A DNA stretch of 32,000 bases from Candidatus Hermodarchaeota archaeon. Lineage in GTDB: Archaea > Asgardarchaeota > Heimdallarchaeia > Hodarchaeales > Hodarchaeaceae. This document shows positions 1-24,063 of this stretch, in pieces. The DNA lies in the NCBI GenBank assembly GCA_048886185.1, contig JBHLKY010000010.1, positions 108,526-140,525 of the forward strand. Reading direction: 5' to 3'. Below the pieces are notes generated by a model that was not told the origin of the DNA, made no database searches, and saw only the letters and a program-made list of their open reading frames with translations. Within the stretch, counting starts at the first letter, position 1. Each line of letters opens with the position of its first letter. A program made the position numbers and the translations under genes.

Positions 1-1787
1 AATGTGTTAAGTGGTCTAATTTGGGCTTCATTTAGTATGAATCTTGGATTACCACGACTCAAATATGTATAAATAAAATAGGGGATATCTCTTTTTTCCG
101 TTTTATACCAATGTTTTCGAGTTTTAACTAAGTTCCCATTATGTACATTTTGACTTAATCCTAATTCAAGATAATCAGATAAGTTTTGATCATGAATGTC
201 ACTGATATCTTCCTGTATATTTAATAACCACATTTTTTTTTCTTGTTCTGATAAATTGTTAAAATCTTCTTTTGAGAAGCAATATTTTTGAACATATCGT
301 GTCCTAGTTAGGGTTGGAACCACAAATTCATCTTTAATTTTATAAGACGCTAATTCTTTTGTAGTAAATGTAAAAAAACTATTATTTCCAGTAGCAATAC
401 CTCTCATAACTTTGAAAAATTTTGATAATTCAACAAGTTTTTCATTGATTTCATAATTAGTGAAGGCATCTGGATTTGTCCAATTCCGTTCAGGATCTAT
501 ATCAATCTGTCTTTTACTATGGAGTTCACCATCTGACCACTTAAAAACCTCATTACTTTCAATTTTCAAGTAATTAAAGATTTTCTCCTTAGAAGTCCAC
601 TTTTTCACTACTAGTAGCTTTGTTATTTCATCTTCCCTTGGTTTTCGCCCCTCTATTACAAAAATACATGCAGCAGTATCCACTCCAGGAAATATATCTA
701 GTGAATGATGAAATACGATAATATAAGGAACTCTATATCTCTCCTTCAAGATCATCTTAAGATAATCGCTATTTCTTGATTCAAAAATTATTGTTGGAGT
801 TATAAAGACCATTCTACCGTCCTTAATTAGAAGTTTCAATGATTTAAGGATGAAGTACATGAATAGACTGGATATTCTATTGAATTTTCCTCCGAAATTT
901 TGCTCAATCTCATTTCCAATCCTATCTTTTATTCTTGATGAAAGCATATGATGTCGAGAATAAGGGGGATTGCAGATAATACAATCAAAACCATTTGATT
1001 TAGTTTTTAGAAATGAATCAAGGCCTTCTGCTGAAGATATGGCTAGTTCATCGTGAATACTATTCTCAAAGTTATTTTCAGCTGTTGTTAAGAAATCTCC
1101 TTGCTTCAGTTCCAGTTTAAACTGAGAATTGTACAGATTCACCTTACATATCTCATATAACAGGGGATGAAGTTCAATACCAGTTATTTTCCCTTGAAAG
1201 TCTTCCGAAATCGACTGGAGAGCTTGAATAAAGGTTCCTGGCCCAGTACATGGATCGAGGATATTCCTTGGGTTATTTTCTAGTGATAATGTAACCATGA
1301 ATTCTGCAATATGTTTAGGCGTCCAAAATTGGCCTAATTTTCGTCTGAACCGTTGATTTAATACTTTTAAAAATAATAACGATAAAATATCTGATGATTG
1401 ATTCAGTAATCGTTGATCAAATTGGAGTATTGTCTGTGAAATAACCAATGTGCTGGAATTGGCTATAGAATCAACTATAGAGGAGGTGAACATTTGAGGA
1501 TAAGTTTGCTTTAAAAGATCAGAAGTTGTTTGATATGTGGCATAGATTGTTTTACTGTCTAGTGGTCCTTTTCCATAGGAAACGATAAATCTAAGACGAT
1601 TAAGGATAAGTAGGGCGGCAAGTTGTCTATATGTATCGACAGATTTTAAAGGAATATCACACATCTTTGAGAAAGAAGATAACTCCTTTTGATCGTGAAT
1701 ACTAATCCTTTCATTAAAATTGAGTGGAATGGAGTTAATTATTGTTTGAAATGTTTTCCCTATCTCATTTGGTAATTCTTCGGTCAT
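1..1787 (-). CDS. N6-adenine DNA methyltransferase, gamma class (M.TaqI/Eco57I-like), 3'-truncated by the window edge
   Basis: Not in the ORF track because there is no stop inside the window. Hand translation from ATG 1787 (GGAG 4 nt upstream) gives RRKLGQFWTPKHIA (motif X), ILDPCTGPGTF (motif I), FDCIICNPPY (motif IV, ~960-990) and a TaqI-C-like tail (WYK...LFTYLSRGNPRFILNEA). All motifs checked are in the same frame. Confidence 0.9.
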   Translation of the reverse strand, partial: MTEELPNEIGKTFQTIINSIPLNFNERISIHDQKELSSFSKMCDIPLKSVDTYRQLAALLILNRLRFIVSYGKGPLDSKTIYATYQTTSDLLKQTYPQMFTSSIVDSIANSSTLVISQTILQFDQRLLNQSSDILSLLFLKVLNQRFRRKLGQFWTPKHIAEFMVTLSLENNPRNILDPCTGPGTFIQALQSISEDFQGKITGIELHPLLYEICKVNLYNSQFKLELKQGDFLTTAENNFENSIHDELAISSAEGLDSFLKTKSNGFDCIICNPPYSRHHMLSSRIKDRIGNEIEQNFGGKFNRISSLFMYFILKSLKLLIKDGRMVFITPTIIFESRNSDYLKMILKERYRVPYIIVFHHSLDIFPGVDTAACIFVIEGRKPREDEITKLLVVKKWTSKEKIFNYLKIESNEVFKWSDGELHSKRQIDIDPERNWTNPDAFTNYEINEKLVELSKFFKVMRGIATGNNSFFTFTTKELASYKIKDEFVVPTLTRTRYVQKYCFSKEDFNNLSEQEKKMWLLNIQEDISDIHDQNLSDYLELGLSQNVHNGNLVKTRKHWYKTEKRDIPYFIYTYLSRGNPRFILNEAQIRPLNT

Positions 1788-1829
1788 TTTCTCCGTATCC
1801 GCTGATATTGCCAAAACTCATTAAGGTAT

Positions 1830-6600: not shown

Positions 6601-8094
6601 TTAGGAGTTACTTTTCTTTATCAAATAAATTGTGGATTTAGTTATTTCTAATTCTCTATCTGAACTTCTTAAATAAGAGATCACAGTACCTAATAATGCA
6701 AATAGGGAGAAAAGAAGAAACGTTTGTCCTAAACTTGTGTAATAACTTGAAATAAATACTGTTCCTGAAGTAATGTTATTTGGATTATTTATGAGGAAGA
6801 ATAAAGTAAATATCGATGAGCTAATAGTAGTACCTAAAGCAAATCCAATATTTCGCGAAAGACCTATTAGACCAGTAACCACACTCACATCTCCTTTTGG
6901 GGCTACATTCATCACAGAAGTACCATTTGACACGGTAAATGTAGTTAAAGATCCTGCTGAGAATGCAACTAGCGGTACAAGAATAAAAATAATTTCTTGC
7001 GAATTATTTGGGAATATATTAAACAAAACGGACAGAGACAAAACAGAAAAACCTAATATTACCGCACCAAATGAGGTCGATCGTTTTGCATCAATCTTTT
7101 CAGCGAAAAAACCTGCAAATGGTCCCATGACCGCCATTGCGAGAGGAGGGACGACCATTAAAATCCCTGTCTGATCTGGTGGGAATAATAGAACCTCCTG
7201 ATAATAGAATGGTAAAAGAAAAATAACACTATAATAAACCATATAACAAAGAAAAGAAGAGCTAATACCTGTTAAAATTGTTTTATCCCTCAGAATGTCC
7301 ACAGACACCATTGGTGTTGGATGATTACTTTCTATAAATAGGAAAATAATCCCAGATACTAAAGCGATTAAGATTAGAACTCCTCCGATGAGTTCTCCTT
7401 TAAATAAAGTCAAAATTCCTTGAACTAGAGAAAAAGCAGTGATGATAAAAACAAACATTCCCCCATAGTCAAGTTTATACCTTTTTTCGGGAGTTTCTGG
7501 AATGAATAGTTGAACCAGTAGAATTCCAAGTAATCCTATTGGTATATTTATCAGAAATATACTTGGCCACCCCACATATTTTGTTAAAAAGCCCCCAATA
7601 GCTGGTCCTGTAGAAAGTGCAGATGCAACTACTAGCGAATTAATACCGATAGCTCGACCCCTTATTGATGGTTCGACATATGTTATTACCAATGCCAAAC
7701 CATTGGCCATAAGACCAGCTGCACCAATTGCTTGAAGGGCTCGAGAGAGAACAAGAATCTCTAAAGAAGGAGAAAAAGCACAGAAGAGAGATCCCAATAT
7801 AAAAAATAACATTCCAAGTTGGAAGATTCTTTTTCTACCATAATTATCCCCTAAAGATCCACCAATTCCTATTAAGGATGATATTACAAGAAGATAGATA
7901 ATAGTCACCCATCTAACTCCTTCCATATCAGTTTTTAATGCCCTTGCTATTGTAAATAGAGAAATATTAACAATACTTCCATCAATGGCTGACATAAACG
8001 TTCCAATGGCAGTTATAGGGAGAATCATTCTTAATGGAATAAACATGGGGCTTGATGAAGGAGTATCAGAGGCTATATTGGTGATTTTTTCCAT
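6601..8094 (-). CDS. MFS transporter, DHA2 (14-TM, EmrB/QacA-like)
   Basis: IDGSIVNISL, motif A GSLGDNYGRKR, RALQAIGAA, GPAIGGFLT..GWPSIFLINIPIG. Confidence 0.9.
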   Translation of the reverse strand: MEKITNIASDTPSSSPMFIPLRMILPITAIGTFMSAIDGSIVNISLFTIARALKTDMEGVRWVTIIYLLVISSLIGIGGSLGDNYGRKRIFQLGMLFFILGSLFCAFSPSLEILVLSRALQAIGAAGLMANGLALVITYVEPSIRGRAIGINSLVVASALSTGPAIGGFLTKYVGWPSIFLINIPIGLLGILLVQLFIPETPEKRYKLDYGGMFVFIITAFSLVQGILTLFKGELIGGVLILIALVSGIIFLFIESNHPTPMVSVDILRDKTILTGISSSFLCYMVYYSVIFLLPFYYQEVLLFPPDQTGILMVVPPLAMAVMGPFAGFFAEKIDAKRSTSFGAVILGFSVLSLSVLFNIFPNNSQEIIFILVPLVAFSAGSLTTFTVSNGTSVMNVAPKGDVSVVTGLIGLSRNIGFALGTTISSSIFTLFFLINNPNNITSGTVFISSYYTSLGQTFLLFSLFALLGTVISYLRSSDRELEITKSTIYLIKKSNS

Positions 8095-9251: not shown

Positions 9252-11837
9252 TCAAGGTTTCCTCTGATATTTCTTTATTGTACCAAGAGTGAGAACAAAT
9301 ATCAAAAACAGTATAAAAGGAGGGAAGGATGCATAAGCATCTGTAAGTACTGGAGGACTGTTATTGATTTCAAATTCCCCCCATTCTTCCTTATAAAATG
9401 AATTTAAACCATGAGAGCATGTAGCGTTTATCATTAGGTAATATTGGCCATCTATTACATTTGTTGTATCCCAATCATAAGAAGTGATAGTTAAGCCTGA
9501 GCTTATTTCAGTCCAGTTCTGCTCATCCCAACCAAACCCTAGTTGTAAATAATAGAGAGAATAAGTTACCTTATGATTTTCAGTATCAAGTGATTCGAGC
9601 CACCGAATTGTGATTGTGCCGTTAATTTGTGTTCGTGACCAATCATCTGGGTTTGCAGGATCCCAACTAGTAGGAGAGGTTATTATTGGGCTTGTAAGAT
9701 AATGAATAGAACTATAATCATTATTTGGTTCTGTTTCTGGATTCTCATCATAATTATATTCATCATAATAATTAGATTGACCCAGTCTCCCAACCTTCAA
9801 TTTATAGTCTACAATACCATCTTTATCATCATCGGGGACTCGATAATTATCCCAAAAATTATGGTCGAACTCATAACAGAGACCATCACAATAGGCTTGA
9901 TAGAATTCTGCAGTTTGATATCTATTTCCGATAAAATCATTCAGTTTAATGATATTATTTTCTGGAATTGGATCACCAGATTCAAACCAATAGTAACCAG
10001 TAATACCATAATCTCTATTATGCCAGATAATGTTATTATCAATAATATTCCCAGCAGAATAACTAATTTCAATACCATTTCCAATGTTATCATAGATAAA
10101 ATTCAACGAAAGAATTGACTTATTTACAGAATCGATGGAAATGCCATTTTCATTTGAAAAAACTTTATTTAGGGTTAGATTACACTCATTCGATTCAGCA
10201 TAGAGAGAAATTCCATAATCATTGTAGTAATCGGATTTGTTTCCATTATTGAAAACATCATTACTTACAAGCGTTATATATGGAGAATTATAAATCGATA
10301 TCCCATTTTTACTATTGTTATGAATCTCACTGTTAAAAATAATAGAATTTTGGATATGATTAAAGGTAATTCCATTTCCATTGTTAAAAGAACTGTTTAT
10401 GTTTGAAAATGTATAATTATAGGGCTCAGAATATCCGCTAACAATTAAACCAGAATACTTATTGTCGATAGTTTCTACATTATGGATAGAGCTGTTATTA
10501 CAATCTTCGAGATAAAGTCCAATATCATTATTGAAGGTAAAAATGTCAGATAGTTCAATATTCCCAGAAAAATGAAGATAAAATCCAGTTCTGTTATTTT
10601 TTGAGCATGTAATTTCTGAAAAAAGACTATTCTCAGAGGCATGAACGTAAATACCATGTCCATTATTTTTAGAGCAATTTATGTTAGAAAAGGTGCTATT
10701 TCCACAATCTGTAATATAATTTGCATGATCGGAAGAAAATTCATATCGGTTATTCCCAAAACTAGATACATCTTTTATTACACAATTTTCACTATCCCAA
10801 AGATAGAATCCATCAGCCAAGTTATTATAGATAGTTAGATTTGATAGAGTGCAAAACCTAGATAGTCCCAATTCGATACCATATCGGGAATTATTAAAGA
10901 TAACATTATCTTTTATTGAATTATTATCAGACATGCTAGAATAGATCCCTTGATAATTATTAGAGATAATGTTGTCTGTAAAAGTGGAATTTCTTGACTC
11001 ATCAATATCCAATCCAGCTCTATAACCATTATTGTAAATATTATTTCTTGAAATAGTGCAGTTTCTTGATTTCCTTATTATTAATCCCTCGTTAATGTTA
11101 AAAGAAACAAAATTATTAGAAATAATCGTAGTATTTGAAGATAAAATAAGTATTCCTTCCGAACTTCCATCACATACCGTATTGAAAATCAAGTGATTCC
11201 CTTTTGTTTGATCAAGTAGAATTCCTGCTTCCTGAAGAGTGTTGTTTACAAGATTTGTAGAAATAACATTAGTATTAGAATCTTGAAGAACAATTCCATA
11301 ATTCAAATTATTAAAAATAATATTGTTGTAAATATACCCGTTACTCACATTTTCAAGGTAAATTCCTCTTGTACCATGTTGCAGCAAACAGTTGGTAATA
11401 TTGAAATAAACATCAGTATTTCTAATATCTATTAAATTAAAAGAACCAGTAGGGTCAGTAATATTTTTATTATTAATACTATAGGGTTTAACTGGGCTTC
11501 CATCGCCAGGAAAGGCTTCAAAATCTGTATTACCATTTATTATGATCGGTGAAGAATTTTCATAGAATGATGGTGCAGTGATAGAGACAATTTTGAAATT
11601 TGGTCTATTCAGCTGTGAGGGGACAGAATGAAATTCTTTTTTTCTAAGAGAATAGCCAGTGTAAGATTCATGATTCTCATAAACTTGTATTGAATGCTGA
11701 TTAATATTCTCGACTGTTTGAGCTGAGTTAACAGCCCTAGCTCCCGAGCTTGGAATAGGAATTCCTATTAGTAGAATCAGAAGAACCCCTGTTTTAAAAA
11801 GATGGATTCTAACTAAAATATCCCCTTTTTGTGTCAA
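9252..11837 (-). CDS. Surface parallel beta-helix (NosD/CASH) protein with Ig-like domain and C-terminal membrane anchor
   Basis: N-terminal hydrophobic signal, PIIING..GDGS..PY motif, many N-x-I-x-x-N-x-x-x-GI repeats, DDDKDG Ca-binding-like loop, Ig-like segment (WDTTNVIDGQY), then TM plus basic tail. Confidence 0.85.
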   Translation of the reverse strand: MTQKGDILVRIHLFKTGVLLILLIGIPIPSSGARAVNSAQTVENINQHSIQVYENHESYTGYSLRKKEFHSVPSQLNRPNFKIVSITAPSFYENSSPIIINGNTDFEAFPGDGSPVKPYSINNKNITDPTGSFNLIDIRNTDVYFNITNCLLQHGTRGIYLENVSNGYIYNNIIFNNLNYGIVLQDSNTNVISTNLVNNTLQEAGILLDQTKGNHLIFNTVCDGSSEGILILSSNTTIISNNFVSFNINEGLIIRKSRNCTISRNNIYNNGYRAGLDIDESRNSTFTDNIISNNYQGIYSSMSDNNSIKDNVIFNNSRYGIELGLSRFCTLSNLTIYNNLADGFYLWDSENCVIKDVSSFGNNRYEFSSDHANYITDCGNSTFSNINCSKNNGHGIYVHASENSLFSEITCSKNNRTGFYLHFSGNIELSDIFTFNNDIGLYLEDCNNSSIHNVETIDNKYSGLIVSGYSEPYNYTFSNINSSFNNGNGITFNHIQNSIIFNSEIHNNSKNGISIYNSPYITLVSNDVFNNGNKSDYYNDYGISLYAESNECNLTLNKVFSNENGISIDSVNKSILSLNFIYDNIGNGIEISYSAGNIIDNNIIWHNRDYGITGYYWFESGDPIPENNIIKLNDFIGNRYQTAEFYQAYCDGLCYEFDHNFWDNYRVPDDDKDGIVDYKLKVGRLGQSNYYDEYNYDENPETEPNNDYSSIHYLTSPIITSPTSWDPANPDDWSRTQINGTITIRWLESLDTENHKVTYSLYYLQLGFGWDEQNWTEISSGLTITSYDWDTTNVIDGQYYLMINATCSHGLNSFYKEEWGEFEINNSPPVLTDAYASFPPFILFLIFVLTLGTIKKYQRKP

Positions 11838-18336: not shown

Positions 18337-18413
18337 ACATAACTTTTTTGAATCCAGATATTACTAGAAGATAAAAATTATCACACTGATTGAGAATTCC
18401 GAGTTTGAGAACA

Positions 18414-19421
18414 ATGGATTGGAATTCCCGCGAACGAGTATTAACTGCTTTTAAACATCATGAACCTGATCGTGTTCCATTATTTGAAGCTTGGATTGAA
18501 TCAGAAATAGTTGAGGCTCTTGGAGGAGATCCTTATCTTGCGAGGGAAAGACTTGGTCTTGATTGTATGCCACTTGGGGAACATCCAGAAAATACTAAAG
18601 CGTACAAAAGTGGAATAGATGAATGGGGACGTATCTTTAAAAATGGACATTATCAAATGGGGATGGTTAAAACAGAGAAAGACTTAGAGAAATATTCTGC
18701 GCCCACTTCGCATGCTCAAGATTGGTTTCCATGGGAAAAAATAAAAATCGTTAAGGAAAAATATTCGGAGAATTACGCTTGTTTCTTTGCATGGCATGAT
18801 TGTTCTCTAGGATTAACTTACTTGAGTATGGGAATGGAGAACTTCTTTCGATCATTATATGATCAACCTGAATTAGTAAAAGCAGTGATTGAGAGGAGTA
18901 CTGAATGGACAATTGCCGTAGTAGATCAAGCTAACCAAAGTGAAGTAGACTTCATAATCCTAGGAGATGATGCCGCGGACAATTCACGTCCTCTGATTTC
19001 TCCCAAATTATTTGGTGATTTGATCCTTCCTGAATACAAAAAAATTGTGAAGGCCTCTGATGCCCCAATAATATGGCATAGCGATGGTCACATTACTCCT
19101 TTGCTTTCAATGATCATCGAAGCAGGTTTTATGGGTGTACATTCATTAGAAAAAAAAGCTAATATCAATCTAGCAAATATTAAAAGGCAATATGGTGATA
19201 AATTAGTTTTAGCAGGGAATTTAGATACTACTGAAATTCTAAGTCAGTCAGATCTTACTCTTGTCAGAAAAGATGTTGAGCGATGTTTAAACGAGGGTGC
19301 CCCAGGAGGAGGATTTCTATTCTCATCTAGTAACAGCTTGTTTGAGGGTCATGATATAAGTGCAATTCTGGAGGCTTATCGTTACGCGAAGGAAATTGGA
19401 GAGTACCCAATTCATATTTAG
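18414..19421 (+). CDS. Uroporphyrinogen decarboxylase-fold (URO-D/MtaA-like) protein of unknown function
   Basis: SRERVLTAFKHHEPDRVP, DEWG, MGMENFF, GDD, WHSDG, LAGNLD, PGGGF. ATG 18414 preferred over TTG 18390. Confidence 0.8.
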   Translation: MDWNSRERVLTAFKHHEPDRVPLFEAWIESEIVEALGGDPYLARERLGLDCMPLGEHPENTKAYKSGIDEWGRIFKNGHYQMGMVKTEKDLEKYSAPTSHAQDWFPWEKIKIVKEKYSENYACFFAWHDCSLGLTYLSMGMENFFRSLYDQPELVKAVIERSTEWTIAVVDQANQSEVDFIILGDDAADNSRPLISPKLFGDLILPEYKKIVKASDAPIIWHSDGHITPLLSMIIEAGFMGVHSLEKKANINLANIKRQYGDKLVLAGNLDTTEILSQSDLTLVRKDVERCLNEGAPGGGFLFSSSNSLFEGHDISAILEAYRYAKEIGEYPIHI

Positions 19422-19424
19422 GAA

Positions 19425-21029
19425 TTAGCTCTCCTTTCTCTTTTTAATCCTCGCATAAAAAAGAAATTCTTCCTTCCCAGGGATTAGTTCAATTTCATGG
19501 TCTTCGGTTAACTTGAGTTTTTCTGATATCTCTTCAGGAATTTTAATAACGTTATTCCTCACTTTTACAATCTTAGAGCTTTCAGCATCTTTAATAACAG
19601 GAACACCTCGAAATCTATCGCGAATATTTTCTTGAAAAGATACTGCCTTACGTATCCCTTTTTCTACTACTTTTTCGAATTCCTCATGTGAGTCAAATCC
19701 CATCATTGATGTGACAACATTTGGATCAATTAACTTGACTTGTTGTTTTACTATTATTTCCTCCCAATCCTCCCTTGTGATTCTATAAAGGGAAGAAATA
19801 TTAATATTCTTTTTTTTGATGGGAATATCTTCTGATTCGATTTTTGATTTTGATACATGAAACTGAATTTTTTTTGTCCCACTTCTTGAAACTCTTTTAT
19901 TTGTTGCCTTTTCACTCGTTAATCTGGTGGGTTTCACCTTTAAGTTGGCAAGGAAAACCCCTGCTCTCTCCTCTAATGTATCAGTAAAAGGAACCTTTAA
20001 CAAAACATCTCCCTTAATATAATTAATGATTTTGTCCTTTTTTCTAATTCTAATGGGTTCTAATACACTATAGAACTCTTGTAGGTCTTTTGCTTCAATC
20101 TGTTTGAGTTCATCGAATATTTTAGGAATTATTACTTTACTCTCTTCGACTATATCATTAGTTCTTGATCGAATTACCCCACTATCTAGAGCTATCTTTG
20201 TTATCGCTGTTGTTAAAGATGTTATACCCATTACTAATGAAAAAGCGACCAATCCTGCAGAAAATATATCAAATGGAAGAATATCCACAAGTAGGAAAAG
20301 AATAACCAAAACGCTCCATTTTAATGTCTGTATTGGTCCTTCAATTGTCTTGAGGAATAATTGCACAGGATCGAGAATAATATCAGGAATATGTAATCTG
20401 AAAAGTCGACTATATTGGAATATAAGCTCTGTGAAACCTATGGTTAGAAATATAATATCCGCGTAAGGATTCAACATATTTAGTTCTTCCAACAGAGTTA
20501 GAATTTCTAGAATTACTGCTAACTTCCATAGGTTAAGGAGAAAATAGGAGATAAGAGGAGGGAGATCAAAGATGATATCTTCAAAGACTTCTGAAGAAGG
20601 GATTGTGAACCAAACGAGAAAGATCAAGATTAAGTAAAAGATTAGTATTTGATTAATTGTAAACGCTATTTCGGGACTTAATGTTATCTTAAAGGTTTTA
20701 TTGGGATATCCCAAATGCACAATAAACCAAGAGACGACATAACCTATGATACTCCCCCCACTGACCTGTCCTGCGGTTAAAGACCTTAATTTTCTTGATT
20801 GGAGTCTTGCTACAACTGAAATTAATAAACCAATTCCTCCCAGTCCAATTAAGTAAACAGGCTCGATAATTGGCCTAAAAAAGACGCTGAACACCCAAAT
20901 TACATTAACAAATACTCCTAAACCCGCTATTTTGCTTCTATATTCTTTATTATCAGTAGAACTCCATAATTTTTGTCCAAATAACTTCACATCAAGCTCT
21001 CTAGCCAAATATCTTTCCTCGTTAGGCAA
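19425..21029 (-). CDS. Polytopic membrane protein with cytoplasmic C-terminus ending in an AbrB/MazE-like segment
   Basis: Roughly 7-8 hydrophobic helices in the first ~280 aa; terminal VIKIPEEISEKLKLTEDHEIELIP. Confidence 0.7.
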   Translation of the reverse strand: MPNEERYLARELDVKLFGQKLWSSTDNKEYRSKIAGLGVFVNVIWVFSVFFRPIIEPVYLIGLGGIGLLISVVARLQSRKLRSLTAGQVSGGSIIGYVVSWFIVHLGYPNKTFKITLSPEIAFTINQILIFYLILIFLVWFTIPSSEVFEDIIFDLPPLISYFLLNLWKLAVILEILTLLEELNMLNPYADIIFLTIGFTELIFQYSRLFRLHIPDIILDPVQLFLKTIEGPIQTLKWSVLVILFLLVDILPFDIFSAGLVAFSLVMGITSLTTAITKIALDSGVIRSRTNDIVEESKVIIPKIFDELKQIEAKDLQEFYSVLEPIRIRKKDKIINYIKGDVLLKVPFTDTLEERAGVFLANLKVKPTRLTSEKATNKRVSRSGTKKIQFHVSKSKIESEDIPIKKKNINISSLYRITREDWEEIIVKQQVKLIDPNVVTSMMGFDSHEEFEKVVEKGIRKAVSFQENIRDRFRGVPVIKDAESSKIVKVRNNVIKIPEEISEKLKLTEDHEIELIPGKEEFLFYARIKKRKES

Positions 21030-21204: not shown

Positions 21205-22290
21205 TTAATTTCTCTTCTTTGACCTTTTTAGTAAAACCAAACCTAGTGTGAGGATCGCTGGAAGTATAGTGAGTCCAGGAGTACCATTTGTAATGGTCTC
21301 TTCTTCTGCGATTGTCCAAAGACTAAAATGAGTCGTGTTACAATAAAGGGTATTTTCTTCTAACCATTGATGTTTAGGGGATTCCCATTTCTCGGAAGAT
21401 TCGTTATAAAACATGAACTTAAGCTTTTCCATGTTTTTAATGCCTAGCTGATTCTTTATTTGATTAGTAAAAGTATAGGAAAAGTTTGCTTGAACCTGAG
21501 CGGAATTGTTCATTTCAATAGCAATCGTCTGGGTACGGATCTGAAACTTAGATTGCTTCATTTCCCTAGGAGATTTTTCATATTCAGTCACAGTAATCTC
21601 TGAGCCTTGATTCAATATCAACTGAAGAGAGAAACCACTTTGTGTCTGGATTTGATATCTATTACCAGCCTGAAGAGCAAATCCTGTTCCATTCTTACAT
21701 TCAAATGGTATTCCAGGAGTAGGATTACGTTCAGAGCTCATATCGTTTTCTGGCGCAAGAATAGTCCAAATACTGAAGTGTGATGTACTACAAAGAACAG
21801 CTGCTCCATCTGTTTTCTTTTCAACCCAATTTTGATGAGCATATTCCCATTGAAATTTGGAAGTGTTATAGTAGGCCCATCTAAAAGTGGAAACATTACC
21901 AAGGCCGTTTAATTCTTGATTAGTATAATTCCTACATAATGTAGCATTCATCGCAACAGTACCATTTAATTCAATGTGCATGTACCTATTAACAGAACGT
22001 GTTTGGTTTGGTAACAGGCCTGTAGGATTGGTATCTGATTCATTAATTTGAATTCTTGCACATTCGTTTGTTCGTACCTGTATTTGATTACCTGTCATAG
22101 TCCTTATATGTGTTCTATTTCCAGCTGTTATATTAAACATTTCTCCGTTACCTGAAGTTATCCAAGGATTCTCTGGGCTTCCAGCTGTTGGTGAGGTGTT
22201 ATCAGCATTCACGGAAGCTAATAAGTAGATTCCTAGAAGATTGAGAATAAGTAAGGAGAAAATTAAGTGTTTCTTTTTCATATCTATCAC
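21205..22290 (-). CDS. Secreted surface glycoprotein with two ~150-aa repeats, each ending in C-x-T-x-HFS-x-W, and a PGF-CTERM-like anchor
   Basis: Signal peptide, HFS at aa 171-173 and 321-323, many N-x-S/T sequons, TPGL followed by TM and basic tail. Confidence 0.8.
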   Translation of the reverse strand: MIDMKKKHLIFSLLILNLLGIYLLASVNADNTSPTAGSPENPWITSGNGEMFNITAGNRTHIRTMTGNQIQVRTNECARIQINESDTNPTGLLPNQTRSVNRYMHIELNGTVAMNATLCRNYTNQELNGLGNVSTFRWAYYNTSKFQWEYAHQNWVEKKTDGAAVLCSTSHFSIWTILAPENDMSSERNPTPGIPFECKNGTGFALQAGNRYQIQTQSGFSLQLILNQGSEITVTEYEKSPREMKQSKFQIRTQTIAIEMNNSAQVQANFSYTFTNQIKNQLGIKNMEKLKFMFYNESSEKWESPKHQWLEENTLYCNTTHFSLWTIAEEETITNGTPGLTILPAILTLGLVLLKRSKKRN

Positions 22291-22557
22291 CTATATAAAA
22301 TATTTAGTAAAACTTCCATAATGAAGAAGTCAATTTTCTCTATTCCTTGCATATATAATTTATTTGAGGAACACTTTTTTGGTAGGTTGTTTAGATGATA
22401 ATAGCATTCCTCATTCCTCTAAATCCCAGAAGTTCATCTGTCTGTATTTTAATTTGTTTAAAGTAACTATTTGAAGAAATCCTCTGTTAAGGGTTTCTAT
22501 ATACTATAGGGAAAAGTCAAGGAACCATTTGATTCAGAAACTTAAATTGGTTGCAGA

Positions 22558-24063
22558 TTAATTCGTTTTATTACGCCTGTTGATTGCCTCAATTAAAATT
22601 TTAAATTTAGCGGAATTAAGAAAATAGCGGTCTCCTTTGAGAGTGATGAGATTGATCCTCTGAAATTTTTTTGTATGATATCTAATTGATTCTTTTGATT
22701 CTCCTATATACTCTGTTAATGCATTAAGATCCCATGAGTTCATTTCTTTAAAAGCCCTCGCAACTCTAAAACCGACTCCAGAAATTATAGCAAAATAGAT
22801 TTCTAAGAAATCAGGATTTGGTTGTTCTCGTAGTAAATAAAAGATCTCATATTGACCATAAATTTGTCTTTTAATTATCTTGAAATCTTCCAATACTTGT
22901 AAATGCCATCGAAGGCTAGAGGTCCCTATATCTAATTCTCGCTTTAATTCACGAAAATGTAGGAACCCGCGTTCTTCAAGTATATCAATTATTTGAGTCC
23001 GATAGGGATTCTCAAGTACATCGTATTCATCTATTCTTCGAACAACTGGTGGATAAAGAATTTGTCCAATTAATAATAGTGGTGTGAGTAAAAATCTTGA
23101 GAACCAGTCACGATCTATTGGAATTTCAATTCTTTTTGGTTTTAAATCCCATTTACTTATCATATAAGCTAATCCAACGACTAATAATGATACTGAGGTG
23201 ATTATTATCCCGATTTGAATAGTTTCCTCAGAAATATTGAATAATGGAAACAAATCCATTTCAGAAAAAGTAGATTGTGAACTAGAATTAGTCTGAGTGA
23301 CAATTGTATGTTTAATTCCGGAAGTGATGAGAGAAGTTAAAAATTGGCTATAAAGAATAGAGGATGAATTAAATTCAGCAAGTGATAGAGGAACAGCAAA
23401 AACAAATCCTGCTTGTTTATTATATCCTGTGATGGTTGCTTTACCATCAGGGGTATTTTGGCTTGTTGCAATACTAAATGAATCATCCAAGGAGTAAGTT
23501 ATTCCTAAGTTCCCTCTTAGTTCTATTGTAGAATTTTTTGACATTTGAAAAGGATCTCGGGTAAATGTTTCATTTACTATAGTCAGTGTTATATCTCCAG
23601 CTATATTCCCAGATGGCCATTCTTTTGGCCCAGAACTCACACTTAATCCTAATAAATCGTGGAGGGCTCCTGGAAATCGCCATATCTCTGGGGATATAAT
23701 CCCATACAGTCCCCCTTCGTGTATGAAATTTTCAATGGCACTTACAATTGTTTCATTAAATGGAGAACTTACTTGATCTAGAATCATTATAATGTATGAA
23801 TAAGTGTCCAAGTAGTTCTCACCTAGAAATAAATTGTTTAAGTCATCAGAAGTTCTAATATTTACTATATTACTTGTTAGATTTAAAGATTGATTTAGAG
23901 TCATTGCTAAGGAGTTATCAACTTCATTCTCTACAATGAACAGTATAGAGTCCTTCGGAAAAACGACAGTTGAACTTAAGATTGAATTCAAATTAATGAA
24001 AAGAATGACAAAAATAAAAATCACTAATAACAGGTTTTTTTGCAGTTTTTTGCTTGATTTCAA
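22558..24063 (-). CDS. Membrane-anchored transcriptional regulator: extracellular domain, TM, two winged-helix domains
   Basis: Signal/TM at the N-terminus, TM at ~23160-23222, then VLENPYRTQIIDILEERGFLHFRELKRELDIGTSSLRWHLQVLE and a second HTH (KESIRYHTKKFQRINLI). Confidence 0.8.
   Translation of the reverse strand: MKSSKKLQKNLLLVIFIFVILFINLNSILSSTVVFPKDSILFIVENEVDNSLAMTLNQSLNLTSNIVNIRTSDDLNNLFLGENYLDTYSYIIMILDQVSSPFNETIVSAIENFIHEGGLYGIISPEIWRFPGALHDLLGLSVSSGPKEWPSGNIAGDITLTIVNETFTRDPFQMSKNSTIELRGNLGITYSLDDSFSIATSQNTPDGKATITGYNKQAGFVFAVPLSLAEFNSSSILYSQFLTSLITSGIKHTIVTQTNSSSQSTFSEMDLFPLFNISEETIQIGIIITSVSLLVVGLAYMISKWDLKPKRIEIPIDRDWFSRFLLTPLLLIGQILYPPVVRRIDEYDVLENPYRTQIIDILEERGFLHFRELKRELDIGTSSLRWHLQVLEDFKIIKRQIYGQYEIFYLLREQPNPDFLEIYFAIISGVGFRVARAFKEMNSWDLNALTEYIGESKESIRYHTKKFQRINLITLKGDRYFLNSAKFKILIEAINRRNKTN

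Follow-up and report, generated by a model that had tools for sequence, protein, structure and literature searches.

Does a small surface glycoprotein of an Asgard archaeon cut its own chain at a histidine-phenylalanine-serine (HFS) motif, and if it does, what would such a cut serve? The gene that raises this question lies on the minus strand, at positions 21205–22281, of a 32,000-nucleotide stretch of DNA (the window) from Candidatus Hermodarchaeota archaeon, a member of the Hodarchaeales (contig JBHLKY010000010.1, forward-strand positions 108,526 to 140,525), and we refer to its 358 amino acid (aa) product as the surface protein. [quoted passage not shown] An initial annotation, made from the DNA letters and their reading frames, had described the protein as carrying tandem GPS/GAIN-like autoproteolysis motifs. 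The explanation that we think fits best, and that we hold to be reasonably probable when all of its parts are taken jointly, is that the gene product is a secreted, N-glycosylated cell-surface protein made up solely of two tandem sandwiches of the ZU5/GAIN-B/FIIND/MAIN type (MAIN, Microbial Autoproteolysis INducing domain), and that it is a surface element that can detach and whose state is linked to, or governed by, a regulator encoded by the neighboring gene. We think so because the protein has no passenger domain and its gene is kept beside that of a bitopic winged-helix membrane protein; with no passenger to carry, the cleaving module would itself be the functional element.

The surface protein and its closing motifs

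The open reading frame (ORF) at 21205–22290 is present on the minus strand as had been claimed, and the plus strand opposite it contains no overlapping ORF of 60 aa or more. It extends upstream to a GTG at 22290, from which residues are numbered here, and the ATG at 22281 (M4 in this numbering) is the likely start codon, since a GGTGA motif lies 8 nt to its 5′ side and since it agrees with database record P0002, which is 358 aa long and 100% identical to the window protein. A predicted signal peptide, MKKKHLIFSLLILNLLGIYLLASVNA (22204–22281, minus strand), was assigned from the sequence and from the structural model, which has a helix at residues 4–24 followed by a disordered stretch; its cleavage point is putative. 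Between the signal peptide and repeat 1 there are only some 11 residues, and no N-terminal adhesion or enzyme passenger. Two repeats of about 145 aa follow, close to the ~150 aa originally described, and comparison of residues 30–185 with residues 186–340 gives 31% identity with an expectation value (E) of 7e-25.

Both repeats end in the pattern C-x-T-x-H-F-S-x-W. The motif LCSTSHFSIWTI closes repeat 1 and contains H171-F172-S173 (21772–21780, minus strand), and LYCNTTHFSLWTI closes repeat 2 and contains H321-F322-S323 (21322–21330, minus strand), which is 39 residues from the C-terminus; both sets of coordinates were verified, and the two HFS motifs stand at the residues originally named. Across 32 aligned orthologues, which share 35–74% identity with the window protein, both motifs keep their C, T, H, F, S and W unchanged with the sole exception of T319, which is Ser in one sequence, and H-F-S is unchanged across the 64 repeat copies (32 orthologues × two repeats). 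Two orthologues have three repeats, with HFS in every one of them, and there is one invariant Cys per repeat, with Tyr in its place in one repeat of orthologue P0007. Two Trp residues upstream of each motif, W148/W155 in repeat 1 and W302/W309 in repeat 2, are likewise invariant in the 32 sequences. The initial annotation had singled out the preceding Cys, the Trp spacing and the tandem arrangement as the notable parts; the Trp pairs and the tandem arrangement have held, but the Cys is usually replaced outside the orthologues, mostly by Ala, Gly or Gln in the wider relatives (below). Metagenome bins of Hodarchaeales/Heimdallarchaeota are the source of all close relatives. In the genome to which the window belongs (4.84 Mb, 96% complete) the gene occurs once, and across the order matches are present in 18 of 24 genomes, mostly as a single copy.

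The surface protein has exactly 16 N-x-S/T sequons, the number that had been estimated by eye, against 6.2 ± 2.1 in shuffled sequences of the same composition (one shuffle in 5000 attains 16), and seven of them are conserved in at least 29 of the 32 orthologues. One sequon, N318-T-T (21337–21345, minus strand), lies three residues ahead of H321, within CNTTHFS, and is kept in 32 of 32 orthologues; repeat 1 of the window protein has CSTSHFS, and most orthologues carry a sequon at that place. A glycan so near the predicted cut site may affect cleavage or docking.

Fold, cut-site register and predicted self-cleavage

An AlphaFold2 model of the surface protein, built on the orthologue alignment, has a predicted local distance difference test score (pLDDT) above 90 in both repeats, and a model of repeat 1 as a single domain has a pLDDT of 94.6 and a predicted template modeling (TM) score of 0.87. 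In the models each repeat is a beta-sandwich that is all-beta besides one short helix; the sandwiches are formed by residues 41–180 (21751–22170, minus strand) and by residues 188–331 (21298–21729, minus strand), of which the latter is membrane-proximal. A Foldseek search of the PDB with the full model placed the ankyrin ZU5A-ZU5B tandem at the top (E 4e-6), followed by the GAIN domains of BAI2, BAI3 and CD97 and by NLRP1 and UNC5b; Foldseek TM-scores to ZU5-ANK are 0.60/0.56. VIA-align gave 18 ZU5, GAIN and FIIND chains at Z 10.3–7.2, among them the BAI3 GAIN domain (10.3), ankyrin ZU5 (9.8), CD97 (9.7), rat NLRP1 FIIND (9.2), BAI2 (8.7) and CARD8 (8.6), and other folds at Z 5.7 or less. An exhaustive search of 48,161 representative PDB chains with the single-domain model, independent of Foldseek, returned ZU5, GAIN and FIIND chains in its first 19 rows (Z 10.1–6.1) besides three axonemal chains, and unrelated sandwiches reached at most Z 6.0 across both PDB searches. 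Taken by repeat, repeat 1 matches ankyrin ZU5 (Z 10.1), the CD97 and BAI3 GAIN domains (9.4) and CARD8 (8.6) in the exhaustive search, and repeat 2 matches the GAIN domains of BAI3 (Z 10.3), CD97 (9.7 and 9.0) and GPR110 (8.1). The models closest to it in the ESM Atlas are those of hypothetical proteins from Bathyarchaeota and of the ZU5 domain of vertebrate PIDD1 (TM-score 0.76, root-mean-square deviation 2.8 Å over 134 residues), and a SpvB-associated bacterial cluster is also among the neighbors.

On these models we have little doubt that both repeats have a fold of the ZU5/GAIN-subdomain-B/FIIND type, and the earlier suggestion of a prokaryotic relative of the GAIN fold is supported at the level of fold and motif, both repeats having matched structures of this superfamily when modeled and searched. 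What survives of the GPS/GAIN-like label is the subdomain-B fold and the HFS turn; the helical subdomain A, the four-Cys GPS pattern and a match to the Pfam GPS model are all lacking. The PGF-pre-PGF fold, which had been put forward for comparison, was tried and rejected (NCBIfam model TIGR04213 has no match in the surface protein at E ≤1, nor in ten wider relatives at E ≤0.01). PDB sequences searched by profile yielded nothing below E 0.05. The Pfam ZU5 model PF00791 has no match in 151 Asgard genomes, but the controls were equally matchless and this result is hence uninformative; Nup98 is not among the best 50 rows of any structure search, an absence that does not exclude a relationship.

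In the models H171-F172-S173 forms the turn between strands 162–169 and 174–180, and H321-F322-S323 the turn between strands 314–319 and 324–330. In structures of cleaved aGPCRs the N-terminal fragment is a separate chain, and F172 or F322 is the last residue that aligns with the ends of these fragments (GPR110 residue 566, GPR97 249, GPR56 382, Gpr126 827 and ADGRL3 854): in the exhaustive search F172 is the last residue aligned to all five (to L566 in GPR110), and in the VIA-align superpositions F322 pairs with residue 566 of GPR110 and residue 249 of GPR97. The N-terminal chains of GPR56 and GPR97 end at their P1 Leu. The GPR110 cleavage site is H565/T567 (PMC7060178). Because the Phe is the last residue paired with the cleaved fragments, the H-F|S of the modeled surface protein is in the position of the aGPCR H-L|T.

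Domains with the same motif are known to cleave. MAIN domains occur in bacteria and archaea, for example in YfkN of B. subtilis, and cleavage of the bacterial ones at HF|S was shown by Edman degradation, is abolished by Ser-to-Ala substitution and leaves products that stay associated; nearly all of the tested bacterial domains with an HFS motif were cleaved (Brogan & Rudner, bioRxiv 10.64898/2026.05.12.724683, May 2026). PIDD is cut twice at HF|S, in its tandem ZU5 domains, and CARD8 and NLRP1 are cut at SF|S, the Phe being buried (PMC3210808). Because neither His, Phe nor Ser varies, because the register is that of established cut sites and because cleavage occurs in bacterial domains that carry the same motif, we consider self-cleavage of the surface protein at F172|S173 and F322|S323 to be likely by analogy.

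Each domain would cut its own chain between Phe and Ser, the Ser hydroxyl attacking the preceding peptide bond with assistance from the His in an N-to-O acyl shift, and the ester then being hydrolyzed. The pieces would remain docked, as the strand after each cut would complete the sheet of the preceding domain, and the last strand of domain 2 would be the only link to the anchor. With both sites cut, three pieces would be joined by strand docking alone, and the anchored piece would be a peptide of about 15 residues on the membrane or on a lipid. Given docked pieces and a single-strand link to the anchor, force or unfolding should be able to shed one or both domains; that such shedding acts as a signal we think improbable.

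Anchor, relatives and the neighboring regulator gene

The tail of the surface protein (21208–21285, minus strand) consists of GTPGL, a hydrophobic transmembrane helix and KRSKKRN, in agreement with the TPGL-helix-basic anchor of the initial annotation, and appears to be a weak sorting or anchor signal of the Heimdall-CTERM type. Orthologues P0045 and P0061 pass the corresponding model NF045529 (cut-off 24 bits) with 26.0 and 28.3 bits, and the window genome encodes at least 18 Heimdall-CTERM proteins. It also has two heimdallarchaeosortase genes, with 260.8 and 233.7 bits to NF045528 (cut-off 130 bits), which lie on contigs other than that of the window (C8 and C7); these were found by protein query and NCBIfam, PF09721 (Exosortase_EpsH) having no match in the genome. 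At one orthologous locus (L005) a heimdallarchaeosortase gene (7274–7990, plus strand; 258 bits to NF045528) lies directly downstream of the tandem HFS gene. A heimdallarchaeosortase would process the C-terminal signal of the surface protein.

When 1.84 billion representative proteins were searched with a profile of the repeat, 266 matched at E ≤1e-3, and motifs and tails were counted in 145 proteins examined out of the best 150 of these 266. HFS is present in 127 of the 145. These relatives are mostly small (200–450 aa), with one to three domains, a transmembrane helix and a basic tail, and their last HFS is usually 38–56 residues from the C-terminus. PKD, CARDB, BNR, beta-helix or Big_3 passengers, and with them the MAIN-type architecture, occur in a small number of large relatives. 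Neither Pfam nor NCBIfam has a model that covers the domain. Tails among the best 150 profile matches are archaeal-type or resemble glycosylphosphatidylinositol (GPI) anchor signals, and LPXTG occurs in none; an extended search with the profile added only a few further archaeal proteins and no named bacterial MAIN protein. The GPI-like tails belong to about 30 relatives (E 1e-14 to 1e-7) whose sequence closes with THFSTWGV[FY] and then a hydrophobic stretch without basic residues; they include P0213 from the amoebozoan Planoprotostelium fungivorum and P0177 from an MMETSP marine-eukaryote transcriptome, and no Pfam family matches them. In a tree of the domain (162 rows and 144 columns, made by a quick method, with deep branches unresolved, and from which no donor or direction of transfer was drawn) the orthologues form one clade (Shimodaira-Hasegawa-like approximate likelihood ratio test, SH-aLRT, 96) and the rows with GPI-like tails another (SH-aLRT 82).

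The domain is present in 26 of 151 sampled Asgard genomes, and the strict motif C[NST]T[TS]HFSxWT is found in species genomes of Hodarchaeales (13) and Bathyarchaeia (6), as well as in a single bin labeled Patescibacteria. The strict-motif protein of that bin shows 33% identity, and its occurrence there could reflect either misbinning or transfer of the gene. In another Heimdall-class genome (locus L039) a 404-aa protein (12–1226, minus strand) adjoins a triple-HFS protein; the repeat profile matches it weakly (E 2.9e-5), and it has a CARDB/DUF11 domain and is without the HFS motif. Literature searches on Asgard archaea together with GAIN, ZU5, GPS or Nup98, and on Heimdall-CTERM, turned up no paper describing an Asgard form.

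The best clue to the role of the surface protein is the conserved gene beside it. This upstream partner (22558–24063, minus strand), recognized by profile scans and at the orthologous loci, is a 501-aa ORF whose product, the regulator, has an N-terminal signal or transmembrane segment, an ectodomain of about 240 aa, a transmembrane helix and a cytoplasmic winged-helix module of the HVO_0163 type (residues ~345–501) with an invariant WHLQVLEDF. The Atlas model of its ectodomain (residues ~35–256) resembles ThuA/GATase1 folds with TM-scores of 0.71/0.78, which we take as a lead only. Past the transmembrane helix, on its cytoplasmic side, comes a hydrophobic segment, FSRFLLTPLLLIGQILYPP, that is kept from lineage to lineage. 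The database call for the regulator, P0065, is 448 aa long, and the longer 501-aa form is probably right, as residues 41–52 are conserved in orthologues. Between the two genes lies a 276-nt spacer (22282–22557, minus strand) that, as read from the sequence, is AT-rich with TATA-like runs, for which reason the surface-protein gene may have its own promoter there.

The regulator gene adjoins the surface-protein orthologue in all three orthologous loci that were compared (L003, L004 and L005), in one of which the surface protein is 37% identical, and the two families, which span the same taxa, have at least 16 contigs in common. When eight further Asgard loci holding an HFS-domain gene were examined, seven of them, from three further families, had that gene next to one for a bitopic membrane protein with HTH_HVO_0163_N and HTH_24 domains, in differing gene order and orientation. 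In the two of these proteins that were compared pairwise, the cytoplasmic module is homologous to that of the window regulator (E 3e-27 at L040 and 5e-15 at L038) and the ectodomain is not. The window genome has only four PF24266 matches, so that adjacency of this kind is not due to chance. We judge it fairly probable that the surface protein and the regulator have a functional link of some kind. A complex prediction of the regulator ectodomain (residues 32–272) with the tandem domains (residues 40–332) gave no answer (score 0.00) and speaks neither for nor against binding. The HFS proteins of loci L033–L038 and L040 have a single or a double domain and are 222–403 aa long. In family f14 four of five loci have a third small gene after the regulator (167–183 aa, with one transmembrane helix near residues 104–136), which suggests a three-gene cassette.

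The gene downstream of the surface-protein gene (19425–21029, minus strand) encodes a 534-aa multi-transmembrane protein with a soluble C-terminal part, whose last ~50 residues are weakly AbrB/MazE/SpoVT-like (Atlas TM-scores 0.18/0.41, a lead only); it is adjacent in L003 only, the locus of the closest relative, where it is 66% identical, lies 4 kb off in L005 and was not seen in L004. Other genes in the window encode an 861-aa beta-helix/NosD-type protein (9252–11837, minus strand), an Eco57I/N6-methylase-type protein (3–1814, minus strand, running off the end of the window) and a methyltransferase of the MtaA/URO-D family (18390–19421, plus strand), and the remaining ones are for transporters and sugar metabolism.

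Alternative explanations and known systems

Several points weigh against the explanation that we prefer. The Pfam models PF00791 (ZU5), PF01825 (GPS) and PF16489 (GAIN) have no match to the surface protein at E ≤1, and Pfam and NCBIfam scans return no ZU5, GPS or GAIN family and only the weak Heimdall-CTERM match, so membership in the superfamily rests on fold and motif. The tail scores 11.9–16.8 bits to NF045529, under the cut-off, with PGL instead of PGF. The 276-nt spacer suggests that the regulator and surface-protein genes are perhaps transcribed separately, and their adjacency could mean merely that the regulator controls the surface-protein gene. Some ZU5 domains (those of ankyrin and UNC5) and some GAIN domains with H-x-S/T are non-cleaving. 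The surface protein has the fold, the HFS motif and the placement by which the MAIN preprint defines its domains, but the cleavage experiments reported there were all on bacterial proteins, with no archaeal member (bioRxiv 10.64898/2026.05.12.724683). The surface protein might be a non-cleaving structural or adhesive envelope glycoprotein, its ZU5-like sandwiches being spacers or binding modules, as ankyrin ZU5 binds spectrin, and its HFS kept for packing of the Phe and for a folding turn. Although the best single structural matches do include the non-cleaving ankyrin domains, although there is no passenger to release and although dense conserved glycosylation suits an envelope protein, a structural role would tolerate changes of His and Ser, which besides the Phe are invariant in the 64 repeat copies and are kept in most of the distant relatives too; as the tested bacterial domains with this motif, moreover, nearly all cleaved, we regard such a non-cleaving protein as unlikely.

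Other alternatives accept self-cleavage and differ in what the pairing with the regulator means. The protein may cleave without any signaling, its neighbor being a local transcription factor that senses through its ThuA-like ectodomain and switches an envelope gene on or off. Neighboring pairs of regulator and target are common, the ectodomains of these regulators vary by lineage while the cytoplasmic module is conserved, and the spacer between the genes has TATA-like runs; that the pairing persists through changes in gene order, orientation and HFS-protein architecture in several Asgard families suggests more than operon habit, though it is compatible with this account, which we consider possible but not probable. 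A true analogue of GAIN receptors, whose last strand, laid bare by shedding, would stimulate a membrane partner as a tethered agonist, seems very improbable: there is no GAIN subdomain A, no bundle of seven or eleven transmembrane helices (7TM/11TM) and no GPS Cys pattern, and removal of the transmembrane helix by an archaeosortase would leave a peptide of about 15 residues on a lipid, even though the site is membrane-proximal, the register equals that of the Stachel-bearing GAIN domains and the gene for a membrane partner is conserved. The boldest proposal, which we think improbable though less so than the tethered agonist, is that the HFS protein and the bitopic winged-helix protein form an Asgard-wide two-component device for sensing force or contact, in which the domains are pulled off and the exposed stalk strand or the lost ectodomain is read by the regulator and passed on to transcription; it would be a split archaeal counterpart of the logic of aGPCRs or of RsgI (below). 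Under the same proposal the eukaryotic ZU5/GAIN module might be archaeal rather than bacterial in origin, as could follow from the fact that both Asgard archaea and protists, the latter with GPI-like tails, have relatives that can be detected by sequence. The detachable, regulator-coupled surface element is the explanation that we retain, and it is compared with known systems below.

MAIN domains are the closest of these. Their fold is GAIN_B-like and their HFS is conserved, and in the proteins a signal peptide is followed by a large passenger, either an adhesion or an enzyme, and this by the MAIN domain and the anchor; the preprint associates no signaling with them and is without mention of tandem copies, Asgard archaea or PGF-type anchors (bioRxiv 10.64898/2026.05.12.724683). 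The surface protein shares with them the GAIN_B-like sandwich, the HFS turn before the last strand, the signal peptide and the position before a surface anchor. MAIN proteins are, however, large (mean 158 kDa), with passengers, one MAIN domain and a sortase or SLH anchor, whereas the surface protein has 358 aa, no passenger, an anchor of the archaeosortase type, a membrane regulator as neighbor and its domain in tandem, in two copies and sometimes three. The earlier remark that TxHFS endings are common in prokaryotic surface domains is accounted for by the MAIN domains, this kind of domain being already known.

PIDD1, NLRP1 and CARD8 have the same fold (TM-score 0.76 to PIDD1; Z 9.2 to NLRP1 and 8.6 to CARD8), and PIDD is further alike in having two tandem ZU5 domains, each cut at HF|S, with the strand after the cut remaining docked (PMC3210808). 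They differ in being cytosolic metazoan death or inflammasome proteins with leucine-rich repeat (LRR), UPA, DD or CARD domains, whereas the surface protein is extracellular, glycosylated and archaeal and is not detected by the Pfam ZU5 model. The GAIN/GPS regions of aGPCRs and polycystin-1 share with it the subdomain-B fold (Z up to 10.3), the turn of His, hydrophobic residue and Ser/Thr in register, two conserved upstream Trp residues and the membrane-proximal position. Arac et al. in 2012 are said to have defined GAIN with a helical subdomain A ahead of subdomain B; the surface protein lacks this helical subdomain, has one Cys per repeat instead of four and hence no GPS disulfides, and has a single C-terminal transmembrane helix in place of a 7TM or 11TM domain.

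Zhang et al. in 2012 united the ZU5, GPS and Nup98 domains, predicted ZU5 autopeptidases in bacterial toxins and surface proteins and derived eukaryotic ZU5 from bacteria; archaeal or Asgard forms were not treated there (PMC3482391). These bacterial autopeptidases are, like the surface protein, prokaryotic, secreted and predicted to be self-processing, but they are N-terminal in giant RHS or SpvB toxins and enzymes (PMC3482391). The RsgI anti-sigma factors resemble the proposed arrangement in that an autoproteolytic extracytoplasmic domain, there a SEAL domain, is coupled to control of transcription across the membrane; it differs in having a SEA-like fold and in being one polypeptide with its regulator (PMC10328401), whereas the surface protein and the regulator are two gene products whose coupling we infer.

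The kind of domain found here is thus already known, from the ZU5-superfamily autopeptidases and MAIN; what is new is the absence of a passenger, the tandem copies, the archaeosortase-type anchor and the linked gene for a winged helix-turn-helix regulator. Cleavage of prokaryotic relatives has been shown only recently, and for bacterial ones alone, which are portrayed as devices that release large passengers and have no link to signaling (bioRxiv 10.64898/2026.05.12.724683). Should it not cleave, the surface protein would be a common envelope glycoprotein of ZU5-like fold. It is a minimal archaeal form, a module of the cleaving type by itself and in tandem as in PIDD, and a small tractable case in which to study archaeal cleavage, the function of a MAIN-type domain without a passenger and a coupling of shedding to regulation. 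It bears on the source of the eukaryotic ZU5/GAIN module, and it would carry greater weight were its coupling with the regulator, or an archaeal source for that module, demonstrated.

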